From Candidatus Thorarchaeota archaeon SMTZ1-45 (GTDB taxonomy: Archaea; Asgardarchaeota; Thorarchaeia; Thorarchaeales; Thorarchaeaceae): DNA of 54,985 bases. The position numbers and the translations under genes were made by a program. Positions within the stretch are counted from its first letter, which is position 1. Each line of letters starts with the position of its first letter. The stretch spans positions 1 to 54,985 of the forward strand of contig LRSL01000033.1 in NCBI GenBank assembly GCA_001563335.1, written 5' to 3'. Shown in pieces: positions 11,586 through 20,378 of the stretch. Under the pieces are notes generated by a model that saw nothing but the letters and a program-made list of their open reading frames with translations, did not search any database and was not told the DNA's origin.

Positions 11586-12536
11586 TTATAATCCTCCTAT
11601 AAAACTGGGACCAACTTCATCCTCACTATTCATTGGGATAAGATCATCATCATCTGCTGTGAGAATCATGTAGACTCTTGTGAGACCTATGGAAAGCGCA
11701 GGTAAGACTACGAATGCCAAGAGGAGGCTCATTATGACAGCATAGATTCCTAGTGGTACCAATGCAAGAATTTGAGTTGTAAAGAAAGGAATCGCCATTA
11801 TGAACAATGGTGAAGCAAGAACAACTATTAGCAATATATAAGAGAGCCAAGTGCCAAAGACACGGTCGAAATATTTGATACCCATTTGGATTGACTTCTT
11901 TGTTGCTTCAACAACAGAATAGCCATCGATAATTGCAGGGAACAGCATTGTCATGAGTCCAGTGCTCAATACAAACCAGACTATACCTAGTACAGAAATT
12001 AGTGGATTCATGATATTTGAAGACCCAACACCTATGAAAGCAACATTGAGAATTTGTTCTCCAAATAGAGTTACTGCTGCTAAGATCACTATCATGACTG
12101 GTCCCAGAATGAAAAGGAACAGCATAATTCCACCACCTGCCAGGGAGAAGAACTTCTTTCTGTACCAGGTAAAGACGCCCTCCGCAGAAGTTCCTTCACT
12201 CTCCACAATCTCTCTTGACATTCCAAAGAGTGCACCGCTAGCTACGAAGAATGGAGCAACAAATGGCAGCGCAATCAGGAAGATACCAGTTGCGATTGTT
12301 ATACCACCAGTTGTGAACCACGATTCCAGTGACTCAGCCCAGATTGTGAATGCTTGGAGCCCCCCAGGCGATATCACAATAGGAATGAAGATGAATGCAG
12401 CAACTATACCAATCAAGATGATTGTAACTAAGAAGACTCCAATAATCGCAAGCACATAGGAGATCACGTTTCTGAGTGCAAACCTAATGCTGATCTTCAG
12501 GTCTTCCACAATTGTTTGAAAGCTCGCTTTTTTCAT
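11586..12536 (-). CDS. hypothetical polytopic membrane protein (paralog of 12614..13534)
   Basis: About 6 TM helices. Shares D(L/M)KxS, GxxxGMS, AE..F..(Y/F)RxKFxSxAGxG, S.....YFDRV(F/Y)G and xVY with the neighbouring gene. Confidence 0.8.
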   Translation of the reverse strand: MKKASFQTIVEDLKISIRFALRNVISYVLAIIGVFLVTIILIGIVAAFIFIPIVISPGGLQAFTIWAESLESWFTTGGITIATGIFLIALPFVAPFFVASGALFGMSREIVESEGTSAEGVFTWYRKKFFSLAGGGIMLFLFILGPVMIVILAAVTLFGEQILNVAFIGVGSSNIMNPLISVLGIVWFVLSTGLMTMLFPAIIDGYSVVEATKKSIQMGIKYFDRVFGTWLSYILLIVVLASPLFIMAIPFFTTQILALVPLGIYAVIMSLLLAFVVLPALSIGLTRVYMILTADDDDLIPMNSEDEVGPSFIGGL

Positions 12537-12613: not shown

Positions 12614-13534
12614 CTACACGATGGGCATATCAACAACGCTCTGCGTTGCTATCTCTCCACCAGTGAGTTCTTGGTAGACCTTGACCCAGACGATCCTTAC
12701 CATTGGTAAGAACAGGAGAAGCCAGAGGAGCACCATAATCACAGTATAGAGACCAACACCAACAATAGCTGGGATGAATACCAGAGTGACTGGTGGAATG
12801 AAATCTGCCATAGCAAGAGCTGCTATGACAAGAGGACCGAAGGTGGCGGCTAGCAGAAGCACGATGGCTGTCAAGACTCCGTAGACACGATCAAAGTACC
12901 GGGTGGATAGAGAGAAAGAGTCCTTGAAAGCTTCCTGAACTCCCTTGCCACTGGCTACTGCAGGCCAGACCATTGAGGTCAAACCAGCAGTAATGTAAAC
13001 CCACACAAATGTGAAGGTCGTGAGGACATAGGTGGCTGGCGCGGTGATTGCGTAACCCATCGCATAGGAGGTTAGACCCCAGGCGATGGTGGGTGGTAGT
13101 ACGACAATAATTGTAAGAATTGCACCAGTGCCTGCAAAGGAGAGGAACTTGTGTCTGAAATAGGAGAATGCAAGCTCGGCCTTGGTTTCGCCCTTGGTGA
13201 CTAAGTCATGACTCATCCCATAGATAGAGCCGCTGACGACCAAGAATAATGAAACAAGTGGAATCAATACTAGGATACCAATTCCTCCAACAATGAGAGG
13301 ATTGACTGCAGCCCAATTAGCCAGAGCAGTCATTGTGGCTTCGGAGAATGGCGCGAGAACTACCCATGCTACAATGAGCACAGGGATTGCTACGATCCCA
13401 AGAAGGATCACCATGACAATCAACATGCCTAGATTCGCAAGGAAGTAACTTAGCATGCTCTTCCAAGCAAGTTTAAGGCTCGTCTTCATGTCGTCAAGAA
13501 TTGTACCGAAAGTTGTAGACATTGTATACACCAT
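12614..13534 (-). CDS. hypothetical polytopic membrane protein (paralog of 11586..12536)
   Basis: Same motifs and TM pattern as the adjacent gene. Confidence 0.8.
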   Translation of the reverse strand: MVYTMSTTFGTILDDMKTSLKLAWKSMLSYFLANLGMLIVMVILLGIVAIPVLIVAWVVLAPFSEATMTALANWAAVNPLIVGGIGILVLIPLVSLFLVVSGSIYGMSHDLVTKGETKAELAFSYFRHKFLSFAGTGAILTIIVVLPPTIAWGLTSYAMGYAITAPATYVLTTFTFVWVYITAGLTSMVWPAVASGKGVQEAFKDSFSLSTRYFDRVYGVLTAIVLLLAATFGPLVIAALAMADFIPPVTLVFIPAIVGVGLYTVIMVLLWLLLFLPMVRIVWVKVYQELTGGEIATQSVVDMPIV

Positions 13535-13666: not shown

Positions 13667-14587
13667 CTACATCTTTGCAGAATTGACCATCCCGATGAGT
13701 TTCGCATGTCTATAACTTGAGAAGTACTGGTGATGCCCGCTGATCAAGACTTTCACACTTGTCACATGCTCATTCTTCCTAATAGAGCGAACGATTTCAA
13801 TGAGTTCGGTGATATCATCAGCTACCAAAAGTGCGTAAATCACTGGTTCAGAAGCTGATATGTAAGTTTCTCTATGATGGATAGGATATTCCTTCTCTAG
13901 CATATCCGCGATTGTTGAATACTTAGCTGTTTTTTCATTCCAGAGAATCCGCACTATGAATGGCAGACTCGTGCCAGCTCCCAATTCAACCAAAGCAACA
14001 AAACGGAGTGCGTTATTCTCTTCAAACTCTCCAATCAGCCTTCTCACTCGTCGCGCAGTCAGTCCTGTCTTCTGTGCAATATCAACTATTGGAAGTCGCG
14101 GGTCCTCTAAGAGCGGTTCTAAGATGCGAAGATGAGTCTTGGTAAGGTTCATCTTTGCGCCCCAAGTTCCTATGATTGTATGTAATTCTGCACTGATAAC
14201 ACTATCAAGTGTTCGAAGGAACGACCCAAGCTCCTGTAATTCTTGTGGTCCATGGTATTCTGCCACAAGAGCATAGGTGCCATCAGTATAAGATGAGGCC
14301 GCCATAACATACTTGCTTGATCCAATTTCCTCAACCATCTCAACTTCATCTCTTGAACCATCAGTCGATAAGAGACCGAAGAGAAAACCTGTGCCAGTCA
14401 TTGCAGGAGACATGAAAATGGAATAACCAGAGATGATTCCATTTTCTTCCAGATTCAAAATACGACGACGAATCGCATTGGCTGAAATACCATACTTTCG
14501 TGAGAGCTCTTGGTAACTGAGTCTGCAATTTCGTTGTAAGTCAGTTAGTATGTTCTTGTCCATTTCATCCAAGATGTACACATCCAC
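13667..14587 (-). CDS. Lrp/AsnC family transcriptional regulator with two tandem HTH-RAM units
   Basis: LDEMDKNILTDLQRNCRLSYQELSR...GIISGY, and a second unit LTKTHLRILEPLLEDPRLPIVDIAQKTGLT. Confidence 0.85.
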   Translation of the reverse strand: MDVYILDEMDKNILTDLQRNCRLSYQELSRKYGISANAIRRRILNLEENGIISGYSIFMSPAMTGTGFLFGLLSTDGSRDEVEMVEEIGSSKYVMAASSYTDGTYALVAEYHGPQELQELGSFLRTLDSVISAELHTIIGTWGAKMNLTKTHLRILEPLLEDPRLPIVDIAQKTGLTARRVRRLIGEFEENNALRFVALVELGAGTSLPFIVRILWNEKTAKYSTIADMLEKEYPIHHRETYISASEPVIYALLVADDITELIEIVRSIRKNEHVTSVKVLISGHHQYFSSYRHAKLIGMVNSAKM

Positions 14588-15548: not shown

Positions 15549-15968
15549 TTGATGGGTGACGAACTCGTTTTTCCATCGGACGAATGGATTAAGATGTACA
15601 TGGACCTCCTGAACAAGAATGACCGATATGAGGACGCTGCTAAAACTTGGGAGGGAGACTTTGTCTTTGAGATTACTGCAGATGGAGAGATTGTGACAGA
15701 ACCGATCAGGTTCTACATGGATCTTTACCATGGTAAGTGCAGGGCTGCAAGAATGGCTGGTCCTGATGACACAGCAGAGTTTACCTATTCAGGACCTTAC
15801 AAGAATTGGCGAGCCCTTTTCGATGGCAAGATTGACCCAATCAAGGGAATAATGGCTCGAAAATTCAAGCTTGATGGTGACATGGGCAAGGTCATGCGCT
15901 ACACAAAGGCGGCTCTAGAGCTTGTAGCCACAACAAGACTAGTTCCTACAAAATACTTGGATGAATAG
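15549..15968 (+). CDS. SCP2 sterol/lipid-binding domain protein
   Basis: FPSDEWI...W.GDF...GPYKNWRALFDGKIDPIKGIMARKFKLDGDM. Confidence 0.9.
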   Translation: MMGDELVFPSDEWIKMYMDLLNKNDRYEDAAKTWEGDFVFEITADGEIVTEPIRFYMDLYHGKCRAARMAGPDDTAEFTYSGPYKNWRALFDGKIDPIKGIMARKFKLDGDMGKVMRYTKAALELVATTRLVPTKYLDE

Positions 15969-17064
15969 CAACAAGACTGAATCAATCTCTGAATCATGTA
16001 GGAGCCCCACAATAATGTGGTGGAAAAGGAGCGGTTTAAAGAAAAGACCGGGACCAGGTTGCGCAGTCTGGGAAATCACTCTTGCTTGCAATCTAAAGTG
16101 TATTCATTGCGGTTCAGCTGCAGGTAAGGCACGTTCAGATGAGTTGTCAACAGAGGAAGCACTCCAGCTTTGTGAAGATCTCAAAAGCATTGGATGCAGA
16201 GGAGTAGCGCTCATGGGTGGTGAGCCCTTACTTAGAAAAGATTGGGTCACCATTTCTGAGAGAGTTCATGATTTGGACATGGATCTGTCAATAATAACCA
16301 ATGGATGGCTTGGTCAGAATGATGCCGTTACTCAACAACTAGTTGATCTATCACCAGAGTGTGTGACTGTGAGTCTCGATGGGGGAGAGTCTTCCATCCA
16401 TGATATGATTAGGGGTGTTGAAGGATCTTTTGAGCGTGCAGCAAAAGCCATTGACAGATATGCAGGTCTTGGACTTCCAACCTCCGTAATTACCACTGTA
16501 CATAAGTTGAATCTAAGGGAACTAACAAAGATACGAGATCTCTTGAGGGGGAAAGGAGTAGCATGGCAAATTCAAATGGCTACACCGCATGGAAGACTGG
16601 AACGTAAGCATGTGTTGTCCCAAGATGAGTTCTACTCAGTCGCACTGTTCATTGCAGCAACTAGGAAATTGTATTCTAAGCAACTTATGGTGGCTGGAGC
16701 TCATGATATGGGATACTTCTCCACAATTCTTGATGAGTTGCAGGTTATGTCGTGGCAAGGTTGTCAAGCTGGAATTGGTACACTAGGAATACAGAGCAAT
16801 GGAAACATCACAGGATGTTTAGCTCTGCCTGCGCAGTTCATTGAGGGGAATGTAAGGGAACGATCTCTAAATGAGATATGGTATGATAATGAGTCATTCA
16901 AATATTCACGTCGCGTAAAATTGTCGGACATGAAAGCGCACTGCACAACTTGTGAGTTCAAGGGAATCTGTAAGGGAGGGTGTTCTGCGGTTTCTGTAAC
17001 TATGGGGAAAGGACTCCATCAAGACCCATTCTGTGTGCGCCATATCGAACAATCGATGAAGTAG
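15961..17064 (+). CDS. radical SAM/SPASM domain protein, peptide/protein maturase-like (true start may be ATG at 16015)
   Basis: WEITLACNLKCIHCGS (CxxxCxxC), MGGEPL and VSLDG, plus the SPASM cysteines GCQAG...GC...CTTCEFKGICKGGC...FC. Confidence 0.9.
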   Translation: MNSNKTESISESCRSPTIMWWKRSGLKKRPGPGCAVWEITLACNLKCIHCGSAAGKARSDELSTEEALQLCEDLKSIGCRGVALMGGEPLLRKDWVTISERVHDLDMDLSIITNGWLGQNDAVTQQLVDLSPECVTVSLDGGESSIHDMIRGVEGSFERAAKAIDRYAGLGLPTSVITTVHKLNLRELTKIRDLLRGKGVAWQIQMATPHGRLERKHVLSQDEFYSVALFIAATRKLYSKQLMVAGAHDMGYFSTILDELQVMSWQGCQAGIGTLGIQSNGNITGCLALPAQFIEGNVRERSLNEIWYDNESFKYSRRVKLSDMKAHCTTCEFKGICKGGCSAVSVTMGKGLHQDPFCVRHIEQSMK

Positions 17065-17116: not shown

Positions 17117-17509
17117 GTGAAGGAGTTGAGATGGAGTGGAAGAGGAACAGTTGGATATGCATATCTCAAATTCCGCGATTTTCTACCAACAACTATGAAG
17201 ATGGTGGCTGATGAGTTTATTCGAATTCGGTTTCCTACAAGAAAGCAGTTAGCAGAGATTGAAGCTCTTGGCAAGTGCATAGGCTTAGATGGGAAGGAGA
17301 TTTATGCGGCAACTGGTTTTCCAATCAACAACGAATATTTACAGAAACGTAGATTGACTCCATTATCAGTGTGTATAATGGTTTTAGTCATCATAATCAT
17401 AGGCTTTGTAATCCTTGTTCTTACAGGATATTTTCCTAGACCTCCCGAAGTATATGGTGCTGGTACTCGTTACGGAAGTATAAAACCTAAAGATTTCATC
17501 GTAGACTAA
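17117..17509 (+). CDS. small single-pass membrane protein with C-terminal YxxGxxYG motif (paralog A)
   Basis: TM preceded by KRR, tail PEVYGAGTRYGSIKPKDF. Clear similarity to the next ORF. Confidence 0.75.
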   Translation: MKELRWSGRGTVGYAYLKFRDFLPTTMKMVADEFIRIRFPTRKQLAEIEALGKCIGLDGKEIYAATGFPINNEYLQKRRLTPLSVCIMVLVIIIIGFVILVLTGYFPRPPEVYGAGTRYGSIKPKDFIVD

Positions 17510-17529
17510 CTCACTCGGGGTGGTAAGAT

Positions 17530-17934
17530 TTGCTTGGAATAATTATGCACATGATTTGGGTTGACATAAACCGACTAGAGAGCTATCTTCCCATCAGACT
17601 TTATGATAGAATGCAGCAGATAACAGGTTATGTTGAACCTAGCAGACAACAGTTAACCAAGATTGAGTTACTAGGGAAAAATGTAGGGCTCGAGAAATCA
17701 GAAGTCTTGGCAGCACTGGATTCACATTTGAGCACCACGGGTATTGGGAGTAAATCTAGGATTTCTCTTTTTACTACAATAATCGTTATGATTGTCATAG
17801 CATTAGTAAGTGTCCTTCTTACTTGGTTCGTTGTAGATCCTGAGAGTTTTCCCGTACCAACATATGTTCCAGGTTCACTCTATGGAACCATATCTCCAAG
17901 AGACTTCAGCGCTCTTGACCCAGTGATAGCTTAG
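17530..17934 (+). CDS. small single-pass membrane protein with C-terminal YxxGxxYG motif (paralog B)
   Basis: TM preceded by KSR, tail PTYVPGSLYGTISPRDF. Clear similarity to the previous ORF. Confidence 0.75.
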   Translation: MLGIIMHMIWVDINRLESYLPIRLYDRMQQITGYVEPSRQQLTKIELLGKNVGLEKSEVLAALDSHLSTTGIGSKSRISLFTTIIVMIVIALVSVLLTWFVVDPESFPVPTYVPGSLYGTISPRDFSALDPVIA

Positions 17935-17937
17935 TTT

Positions 17938-19242
17938 GTGGTGAATGAATTATTGAAACTCAATATTGGCTGTGGTCACGAATACAAGAAAGGCTATGTC
18001 AATATTGATGCCTTCGATAGTTCAATTGCAGACAAGAAAATGTCAGCTCTAAATCTTGAGTTTGATGATGATTCATTTACTCAGGTTGAATGTGTACAAG
18101 TACTCGAACACCTTGGGGCTGCAAAGTCAATCTATGCATTGGCTGAAGTTTATCGTGTACTCAAGCCAGAAGGAGTCTTTATCATAGTAACTCCGGATTT
18201 AAGGAATTCATTCAAGATTTTTCTTAAAGGGAATGAGGAACAACGAAAACTAGTGATGAACTGGATATACGGACTAGACATTCCAGGCATGTCGCACAAA
18301 TATGGTTTCCCAGAGGAACTTCTAGAGAGAATGCTACAGGAAACAGGATTCTTTGATATTGATATTAAACGGATTAATAGCAAGTCAACACATCCCTCGC
18401 TTCAGGTAGTTTGTAAGAAGCCATTTTCAAGATGGCATCAGTTATTTACACATTTTCGGAAAAAGCTTGTACAGGGAGACTTGGTGGACCTACAGAACCA
18501 GATCGATGTGATTGATAAGGAAACCATACTGCAAGATATTTTGACAGCTGTTCTGAAGACTAATACCGCAAGGCAGGTTCTACAAATAACTTCAACAAGC
18601 AGTCCCAAGATCGGGCAGGTATTCATGGAGGAATATGTTGCAGAAAATCTAGTATCTGAGGATTATGTTCGGATTCATCTCGGAATACTAGAGGAACTAG
18701 CTCTTCTGGAATTTCCAAAGATGATGACCTATCTTTTTCGAGAAATGCCAGTGATACCTGGATGTCAATCTGAAACATTTGAAACGGTCAGATCGATGTG
18801 TGCTAAATCGGTCAAGAAACTTATCTCTGGGGAGAAAGAAGTCATCGATGAATTAAGAAATACATCAAAAAAGGTTGATATCGAAATCCAGACTATCATT
18901 TTCTCAAAGACTATGTTAAATTCAATCTCGCAGTATCATCAAGCCTTAGGAGCCAAGGCATTTAGCCAAAACAAGTTAGTTGAGGCAATGATTCAGTACA
19001 AGAATGCAGTTCGATTCAATCGTGACAATACATTGGCGTATTGGAATCTCGCACGATTACATGTTTTGAATAATCTGCAAGAAAAAGCTAGAGTGTGTTA
19101 CAGTACTACACACGATCTAGTTTCATTGATGCACCCAAAGGTTATGAAACCCCTGCTTAGAGAGATAGAAACTGAATTTGAACAAGCAATGAAGAGAAAT
19201 TGGAAACATATTGACCAACCAGTTTTGTCGCTACTGCGTTGA
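17938..19242 (+). CDS. class I SAM-dependent methyltransferase with C-terminal helical/TPR region
   Basis: LNIGCG, VNID, VLEHL and YRVLKPEG, with TPR-like AMIQYKNAVRFNRDNTLAYWNLARL. Confidence 0.85.
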   Translation: MVNELLKLNIGCGHEYKKGYVNIDAFDSSIADKKMSALNLEFDDDSFTQVECVQVLEHLGAAKSIYALAEVYRVLKPEGVFIIVTPDLRNSFKIFLKGNEEQRKLVMNWIYGLDIPGMSHKYGFPEELLERMLQETGFFDIDIKRINSKSTHPSLQVVCKKPFSRWHQLFTHFRKKLVQGDLVDLQNQIDVIDKETILQDILTAVLKTNTARQVLQITSTSSPKIGQVFMEEYVAENLVSEDYVRIHLGILEELALLEFPKMMTYLFREMPVIPGCQSETFETVRSMCAKSVKKLISGEKEVIDELRNTSKKVDIEIQTIIFSKTMLNSISQYHQALGAKAFSQNKLVEAMIQYKNAVRFNRDNTLAYWNLARLHVLNNLQEKARVCYSTTHDLVSLMHPKVMKPLLREIETEFEQAMKRNWKHIDQPVLSLLR

Positions 19243-19286
19243 TTCAGTACGGAAATTTATATCACACGTTGTAAATTCGAGATTCT

Positions 19287-20378
19287 ATGACTCTCCTTCA
19301 CACTGAACTCTGTGATATAATTGGAATCAAGCACCCCATACTTCAGGGAGGCATGGGACCATATAAGACTGAGGCACTAGCAATTGCAGTGGTTAATGCT
19401 GGAGCTCTAGGCGTTATCAGTTGTATAGGCATGGCTGCGACACTCATTCCTGAAGCAGCTCCAATTGATGCACAGAGATTATTTGGCTCAGACCCGCCAG
19501 CCATCATTCTACAGAAATCGATTGAAAAAGTCACAAAGGAAACTCGTTCATCTGGTGGAGTTTTTGGAGTAAATGTGCCTGTAGCTGCTGAATTCATCTT
19601 GGCATCAAAGATGTTTGTAGAACAGACAATTGAGTCCTGTAAGGCAGATTCAGACACTGAACGTTCATTGAGAGTTGTTGTGACGTCAGCTGGAAACCCA
19701 AAGCCATGGTCAGTCCTCAAAGATGAGGGTTTCATCTGGGTGCATGTAGTACCCTCTGTATATCACGCAAAGAAGGCTGAAGCAGCGGGTGCGGACATCA
19801 TTGTGGCATCGGGACACGAGGGAGGGGCGCATGTTTCATGGGATCCTGTCCATTCCATGGTGCTTGTTCCAGCAGTTGCTAAGGCTGTGAAAACTCCGGT
19901 AGTTGGAGCGGGTGGTTTTTGCGATGGATTAACCCTTGCTGCAGCTCTATGCTTGGGAGCTGTTGGCATTCAGATGGGTACACGTTTCATAGCAACCAAG
20001 GAGAGTGATTTTGAGCCAATGTGGAAACAGGCGATATTAAAGAGAGAAGAGCGTCAGACTCTCGTCGGACGAGGTCTCTTTGGACCAATGCGATTCTTGC
20101 GTAACAAGAGAGCTGAAGAGATTGTAGAACAGACCTTAGAGGATTTGCCAAACTTCTACCTAGGTGAGCCTCTAGACTCAAATGAGGTGATTCTGAAACT
20201 TGAACAGACAGGATTCGATGACCTTCTTGATGCAAAAGAGGATACTGCTCTGATGTTTGGAGGGGAGGTAGCAGGTCGAATTCAAGATCTACCCACTACA
20301 GCTGAGCTCATAGGAAGCATAGTTAGTGAGGCTTCAGAGGTGCTTGGTAGAGCACCAAAATTTGTGGTTAGTGGTTGA
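19287..20378 (+). CDS. nitronate monooxygenase / FabK-like flavoprotein
   Basis: PILQGGM, GHEGGAH, VVGAGG, GIQMGTRF and GEVAGRI. Confidence 0.9.
   Translation: MTLLHTELCDIIGIKHPILQGGMGPYKTEALAIAVVNAGALGVISCIGMAATLIPEAAPIDAQRLFGSDPPAIILQKSIEKVTKETRSSGGVFGVNVPVAAEFILASKMFVEQTIESCKADSDTERSLRVVVTSAGNPKPWSVLKDEGFIWVHVVPSVYHAKKAEAAGADIIVASGHEGGAHVSWDPVHSMVLVPAVAKAVKTPVVGAGGFCDGLTLAAALCLGAVGIQMGTRFIATKESDFEPMWKQAILKREERQTLVGRGLFGPMRFLRNKRAEEIVEQTLEDLPNFYLGEPLDSNEVILKLEQTGFDDLLDAKEDTALMFGGEVAGRIQDLPTTAELIGSIVSEASEVLGRAPKFVVSG

Follow-up and report, generated by a model that had tools for sequence, protein, structure and literature searches.

What are the products of two small genes that lie between a radical S-adenosylmethionine (SAM) enzyme and a methyltransferase in an Asgard archaeon? 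The genes occupy positions 17117-17934 (plus strand) of the 54,985-nucleotide stretch of Candidatus Thorarchaeota archaeon SMTZ1-45 analysed here (contig LRSL01000033.1, positions 1 to 54,985), hereafter the window, and they encode two adjacent paralogous proteins of 127 and 134 amino acids, which we call A and B. An earlier note on this DNA had read them as a pair with a precursor-like layout, open to modification by the radical SAM enzyme and displaying a tail outside the cell. Judged from sequence and gene context, A and B are probably membrane-tethered substrates of the adjoining radical SAM enzyme and methyltransferase.

The strings that had been quoted from the two N-terminal elements are present in the translations, preceded by FLP and YLP, and A and B aligned in BLASTP with an E value of 3e-15 (34% identity over 94 columns), the alignment taking in the N-terminal element as well as the hydrophobic stretch and the tail. 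This resemblance is not due to chance, because two to four tandem copies recur in ten related genomes. Common to both proteins are a helical N-terminal element with the motif LGxxxGL, one transmembrane (TM) helix and the tail motif YxxGxxYGxIxPxDF; neither matches a Pfam or NCBIfam family. A (17126-17509) most likely starts at TTG 17126, since its orthologs begin at the equivalent TTG directly after a stop codon, and not at GTG 17117, where the open reading frame (ORF) listing begins, because that GTG lies within a GGGTGA ribosome-binding-like sequence common to the orthologs. B (17530-17934) is read from TTG 17530, with GGTGGT upstream; both likely starts lie 6-8 bases 3' of a GGTG-type ribosome-binding-like sequence, as they do in the orthologs.

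The leader-like two-helix element of A lies at 17234-17311 (residues 37-62; alignment A1 and AlphaFold2 helices), its predicted TM helix at 17360-17425 (residues 79-100; AlphaFold2 helix and positive-inside count) and its core motif at 17453-17497 (residues 110-124; alignments), where Gly follows each of the two tyrosines and Arg precedes the second. The corresponding parts of B are the leader-like element at 17638-17718 (residues 37-63; alignments), the TM segment at 17761-17835 (residues 78-102; hydrophobic stretch and positive-inside count), in which L96 and W99 are invariant among B-type proteins, and the core motif at 17863-17907 (residues 112-126; alignments), where Leu precedes the second Tyr. 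In alignment A1, which has 27 rows, G49, G53, Y110 and D123 were invariant, and L48, L54, G113, Y116, G117, I119, P121 and F124 were at least 90% conserved. An AlphaFold2 model of A built on these 27 rows (mean predicted local distance difference test (pLDDT) 72.3) placed helices at 5-19, 22-32, 39-51 and 56-63, followed by the TM helix at 79-100 (pLDDT about 91); the two helices of the LGxxxGL element, 39-51 and 56-63, reached a pLDDT of 86-88, and the tail was unstructured.

The tie to the radical SAM gene, on which the earlier note had also relied, proved to be tight. A search for the small proteins covered 60 related genomes, 36 of them of the same taxonomic family. At E <= 0.01 the proteins were found in 12 of the 36 family genomes, ten of which carried tandem copies at E <= 3.7e-8; the weak single matches in G019 (E 0.009) and G029 (E 0.003) were dropped as chance matches, as neither genome has the radical SAM enzyme, and the locus in G029 has neither that enzyme nor the methyltransferase. 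The radical SAM enzyme (E <= 1e-150) was present in exactly the same ten family genomes. All ten loci, like the Thorarchaeota cassette in general, show the order radical SAM/SPASM enzyme, two to four small genes, methyltransferase, except that the contig of G017 ends before the methyltransferase. A metagenome scan seeded with the B-type alignment A3 yielded 11 loci, in which the radical SAM gene lay directly upstream in all eight that reach upstream and the methyltransferase gene directly downstream in all nine that reach downstream. Among the sequencing runs listed as carrying the sequence, four DNA runs are marine sediment or seawater metagenomes, and none is of RNA.

The same linkage was observed across 400 Asgard genomes, where the small proteins (E <= 1e-6) were found in 79 and the radical SAM clade (E <= 1e-90) in 104; comparison of the two lists showed that 75 of the 79 also have the enzyme, and homologs occurring widely without the radical SAM gene were not seen. 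The four exceptions were G396, whose contig stops inside the radical SAM gene, G292, whose contig stops just after the small genes, G061, where the adjoining enzyme matches in two frames (3596-4604 of contig C101, a frameshifted gene or an assembly error), and G246. The 29 Asgard genomes with the enzyme and no profile match belong to lineages in whose loci more divergent proteins with several TM segments are encoded; a leader-like element still opens these proteins, and a Tyr-Gly tail closes them. In a separate scan seeded with the radical SAM enzyme (alignment A2), a methyltransferase homolog was found in most loci with an enzyme that shares about 43% identity or more with that of the window, and those without it often stop at a contig end; among more distant loci it was found in one only (L102). 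The methyltransferase, with its C-terminal helical/TPR part, had no place in the earlier note, and it is as constant a partner of the small proteins as the radical SAM enzyme.

The cassette is a discrete accessory unit: in all five genomes of the same genus that lack it, the flanking PHP, SCP2, NMO and ADH genes are directly contiguous. The upstream SCP2 and PHP genes were considered as parts of the system and rejected as mere neighbours, because they are joined to NMO in these five genomes. At three loci (L025, 3309-9119 of contig C6 in G011, and L122 and L123, 265-6076), PHP-SCP2 was observed on both sides of the cassette, and the downstream copy of SCP2 in L025 is broken between two frames. 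Such a duplication is what would remain after one crossover, within PHP-SCP2, of a circular piece bearing the cassette, and it gives a hint of the route by which the cassette spreads inside the genus.

The family reaches beyond Thorarchaeota and is rare. A profile search for homologs with A1, of the kind that the earlier note had proposed, recovered, from 1.84 billion cluster representatives, 123 at E <= 0.001. Together, the profile matches and the loci seeded with the radical SAM enzyme revealed three architectures that share the same leader and core. In the first, soluble peptides of 55-140 amino acids lack a TM segment, and one to five tandem cores of 15 residues were found in them; in the named loci these belong to Thermoplasmatota, in clusters with two radical SAM paralogs. 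The second, of Thorarchaeota type, consists of leader, TM helix and one core. The third, found in Elusimicrobia, consists of leader, a hydrophobic stretch that closes with the Cys of a lipobox, a linker and the core, the lipobox being present in place of the TM helix in all ten sequences when read by eye. Since the soluble forms are clear precursor peptides with the same leader and core, they support the reading of A and B as substrates, and the precursor-like layout proposed in the earlier note holds. The traits of precursors of peptides that are synthesized ribosomally and modified post-translationally (RiPPs), that is, a leader and core layout, multiple copies and an adjoining maturase, are all present.

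When 133 representatives were aligned to the profile, the leader positions were G in 119/121, G in 121/123 and L in 120/123, and conservation was highest in the tail. There the first Tyr was found in 128/129, the Gly in 121/128, the second Tyr in 129/130, the Asp in 123/128 and the Phe in 117/127, the core reading YxxG(T/S)xY(G/S/A)(T/S)(I/V)xxxDF; the tail tyrosines, on whose constancy the earlier interpretation depended, hence do not vary. The residue after the second Tyr was G in 80, S in 27, A in 18 and N in 4 of 130, and the residue before it was L in 40, R in 40, F in 10 and Y in 8 of 130, with others in the remainder. In the Elusimicrobia loci L063-L073 and L078, the residue after the second Tyr was Tyr in nine sequences and Ala in one (L078).

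Some further observations concern these relatives. A conserved Cys pair flanks the first Tyr in most of the Elusimicrobia sequences, and a disulfide there would fit an extracytoplasmic core. Clusters of Thermoplasmatota and Methanobacteriota contain two radical SAM/SPASM paralogs with the precursors between or before them (L076, 2065-4541; L082, 1830-4511; L079, L059 and L071), where Thorarchaeota have one, and two radical modifications are therefore suggested in those clusters. In one protein of 1240 amino acids (P0097), which belongs to no Pfam family, the leader part of the profile matches four times. Forms of the small protein that are longer and fused were absent at E <= 0.001, which is weak evidence, and the ESM Atlas returned unnamed clusters and weak structural rows only.

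The soluble relatives also bear on whether A and B are substrates at all. The small proteins might instead be membrane anchors that recruit the enzymes, or membrane-bound regulators of helix-turn-helix type or immunity proteins, as the LGxxxGL segment, read by eye, resembles the turn of a helix-turn-helix, A and B are larger than classical precursors, and no exporter or protease is encoded nearby. We consider such roles very unlikely. The same leader and core occur in soluble peptides of 55-75 amino acids with tandem repeated cores, which excludes the role of anchor or DNA binder for those peptides; moreover, the unstructured tail and not the helices is the most conserved part, and no helix-turn-helix family of Pfam or NCBIfam was matched.

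If A and B are substrates, on which side of the membrane does the core reside? The basic patch that had been noticed before the TM segment is a family trait: among 122 TM-bearing sequences, a partly redundant set that mixes alignment rows and database representatives, the mean number of Lys and Arg in the 12 residues before the TM segment was 2.13, versus 0.29 after it, and 113 of the 122 had more before than after. This positive-inside count and the lipoprotein variant support a predicted topology with the N terminus inside and the core outside, in agreement with the earlier note. Across the family, a median of 32 residues follows the 19-residue hydrophobic window. With the TM helix so near the C terminus (about 30 residues), insertion is expected to be post-translational, which would give cytoplasmic enzymes time to act. 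A and B thus resemble tail-anchored membrane proteins in having a single TM helix near the C terminus (79-100 of 127 in A), the N terminus inside and the bulk of the protein in the cytoplasm; they differ in that the short exported tail is the conserved and presumably functional part, and their insertion route is a prediction.

The earlier note had further suggested that the two proteins may heterodimerise, and the tree and the copy numbers speak to this. The tree of the 27 proteins contained a supported B-type clade (96/93), to which B of the window belongs, and left the A-type set unresolved. Eight genomes, among them that of the window, retain one A-type copy together with one or more of B type, as might be expected if an obligate membrane heterodimer of A and B were the functional unit. 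Such an obligate pair is most improbable, because two A-type copies occur in G016 and because G017, G030 and G048 possess duplicates specific to their lineages; in addition, the copy number ranges from two to four and the soluble relatives are single or multi-core peptides. Alignment A1 revealed a different kind of pairing: in 10 of 11 genomes of the Thorarchaeota family (G016 included), at least one copy has Arg or Lys and one has Leu or Phe before the second Tyr, the exception being G017 with only Lys and Arg. Because the genomes are related, we report this as an observation without statistical weight.

Which chemistry, then, would the two enzymes perform? The radical SAM/SPASM gene lies at 16015-17064 (plus strand; Pfam Radical_SAM 1.4e-24, SPASM 1.1e-07). 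Its ORF is listed from 15961, and it probably starts at ATG 16015, because the orthologs in G010 and G026 carry stop codons upstream of the equivalent position; as listed, with the stretch 15961-16014, the ORF overlaps SCP2 by 8 bases. The CxxxCxxC motif and seven later Cys residues are invariant in 14 orthologs, indicating an enzyme that appears intact. Its best NCBIfam matches were TIGR04103 (209 bits; cut-off 725) and TIGR03913 (205 bits; cut-off 592), further families scoring at most 165 bits, and relatives in other phyla gave the same pattern, with 165-225 bits against TIGR04103. Among named families, peptide maturases lie nearest to the enzyme, and among relatives of solved structure, SkfB and PqqE.

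The second enzyme, encoded at 17938-19242 (plus strand), is a class I SAM methyltransferase of 434 amino acids (Pfam Methyltransf_11 1.3e-07) with a large all-helical C-terminal domain that includes a TPR part (TPR_11, 24.2 bits, under the Pfam cut-off of 26.8). It has the Rossmann-like fold, Gly-rich SAM loop and acidic residue of its class; GCG, NxD, EH and H120 are invariant in 20 orthologs, and the AlphaFold2 model reached a pLDDT of 91.3. There was no sequence match in the PDB, and Foldseek yielded generic class I methyltransferases only. The gaps from the radical SAM gene to A, B and the methyltransferase gene are 61, 20 and 3 bases, all on the same strand. The G+C content is 0.38-0.40 across the small genes and the methyltransferase gene (17200-19300) and 0.44-0.48 in the flanks and the radical SAM gene.

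From the family membership, gene linkage, motif conservation and topology signals observed here, we infer the following binding, order of events, chemistry and display. Each substrate would consist of a cytoplasmic N-terminal helical docking leader (LGxxxGL), a TM helix with the N terminus inside and the C terminus outside, and a short unstructured tail bearing the core. The radical SAM/SPASM enzyme would bind the leader, with no separate recognition protein, and perform radical chemistry at the near-invariant tyrosine motif; the methyltransferase would then introduce a second modification. Both steps would take place in the cytoplasm, before a post-translational insertion like that of tail-anchored proteins, after which the modified tail would stand outside, still tethered.

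For the radical step, splicease-type excision of tyramine at X-Tyr-Gly, giving an alpha-keto-beta-amide, is a tentative possibility. In published work on spliceases, tyramine is excised at X-Tyr-Gly with many residues tolerated at X (PMC11414181, PMC9811515, PMC11002830, PMC10533398), X being described as variable in XYG motifs (PMC9811515), and the leader helix of binary systems is described as used for docking on the enzyme (PMC11414181). Splicing fits the core of the small proteins because the residue before the second Tyr is variable and Gly after it is frequent; X-Tyr-Gly is present in both proteins of the window. In addition, TIGR04103 is the top NCBIfam match of the radical SAM enzyme, which carries the CxxxCxxC motif and SPASM domain of spliceases.

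Several points weigh against the reading set out above, some of them against the substrate model and more against splicing. A Pfam scan found no leader protease, exporter or recognition-element protein in the cassette, and eight loci of Thermoplasmatota, Methanobacteriota and Elusimicrobia that were scanned also gave no dedicated protease or transporter. An N-terminal extension of about 35 residues with a conserved LP is specific to the Thorarchaeota proteins and has no place in the model. With cytoplasmic enzymes and a tail predicted to lie on the outside, the model requires modification to precede insertion, an order that is itself only inferred. As for splicing, the TIGR04103 score of the radical SAM enzyme lies far below the cut-off of that splicease model, and TIGR03913 scores about equally; Gly follows the second Tyr in only about 62% of the cores, versus the published XYG motif, and that residue is Tyr in most Elusimicrobia forms; the invariant first Tyr, Gly and Asp-Phe and the ever-present methyltransferase are without a role in known splicing. 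The role of substrate is well supported, whereas the ketoamide that the earlier note had envisaged is no more than a tentative possibility: the radical SAM enzyme is nearest to TIGR04103 but scores low against it, and the Gly is inconstant.

The same features bear on a second chemistry, in which the small proteins are substrates and the radical SAM enzyme makes a Tyr-centred cross-link (a C-C cyclophane, a C-O ether to a neighbour, or Tyr-Tyr) with no excision of tyramine, the methyltransferase then capping, for example, the invariant Asp or the hydroxyl of a Tyr. Many radical SAM/SPASM maturases form cross-links, and repeated short cores are common in cyclophane-type precursors. The two near-invariant tyrosines six residues apart, with the invariant Gly and Asp-Phe, resemble a fixed scaffold more than they do one splice site, about a third of the cores have S, A, N or Y after the second Tyr, and WgkB, StsB, DynA and PqqE are among the matches of the enzyme. 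However, the top families are TIGR04103 and TIGR03913, cross-linking families scoring 40-70 bits lower, and the sequence does not reveal a partner residue. We regard a cross-link, too, as possible and short of probable.

Comparison with known systems places the cassette near, but outside, several of them. The spliceotide systems, both the binary type without a Y protein (RhaX/RhaA) and the PlpXY/PlpA type, resemble it in having a radical SAM/SPASM maturase beside several precursor genes, a helical leader, a core that often reads X-Tyr-Gly with variable X and several cores or precursors, and the binary type shares the lack of a separate recognition protein; judging by the name of the model, we take TIGR04103 to be the subclass of PlpX. 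The cassette differs from them, beyond the score and the inconstant Gly, in the second near-invariant Tyr, the Gly and the C-terminal Asp-Phe, in the methyltransferase with its helical/TPR part, in the placement of a TM helix or lipoprotein signal between the leader and the core, and in its hosts, which are archaea and Elusimicrobia. The GDL-motif system of TIGR03913 matches the radical SAM enzyme as well as TIGR04103 does, and that family is described as accompanied by DUF1842/DUF1843 proteins (PMC12114271). The enzyme falls outside this family as well, as its score is under the cut-off and the small proteins match no Pfam family. Mycofactocin and PQQ biosynthesis likewise involve a radical SAM/SPASM enzyme (MftC, PqqE) acting on a Tyr-containing peptide, and both enzymes are among the matches; in contrast, the precursors here are multi-copy, variable and membrane-anchored, their Tyr is not C-terminal, and the scores are under the cut-offs (148 versus 265 for MftC and 99 versus 381 for PqqE).

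If tyramine were spliced out before insertion, the tethered alpha-ketoamide peptides displayed on the surface could serve as covalent-reversible warheads that trap proteases. We consider this rather unlikely; were it so, the copies of Arg/Lys type and of Leu/Phe type before the second Tyr would be two specificities.

Elsewhere in the window, two tandem paralog-like proteins with several TM segments, of 316 and 306 amino acids, are encoded at 11586-12536 and 12614-13534 (minus strand), one of them with a weak, sub-threshold match to DUF7544. A 306-amino-acid protein with two AsnC-type winged-helix modules is encoded at 13667-14587 (minus strand), divergent from the PHP gene, and its gene is kept beside PHP in relatives with or without the cassette.

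Ribosomal peptides modified by radical SAM enzymes are familiar as natural products that cells secrete or as precursors of cofactors. In the present case, their logic of leader and core is found within small resident membrane proteins or lipoproteins with a fixed pair of enzymes, and the gene set is present in about a fifth of the sampled Asgard genomes and also in Thermoplasmatota and Elusimicrobia. It is named in no family library searched (Pfam, NCBIfam), and our literature searches yielded no paper on the cassette; archaeal homologs may already be among the entries of the splicease classification of Scott et al. (Chem 2022). An easy substrate for tests is available in the soluble relatives. 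If tyramine splicing is true, spliceases extend to archaea as well as to a relaxed motif, X-Tyr-(Gly/Ser/Ala), with value for protein engineering; otherwise, a new tyrosine chemistry awaits. Should the displayed tails in fact be protease-trapping warheads, they would be the first RiPP-type backbone chemistry on resident membrane proteins, with the same logic used in three ways: on a TM helix in Asgard archaea, on a lipid anchor in Elusimicrobia and as free peptides in Thermoplasmatota.
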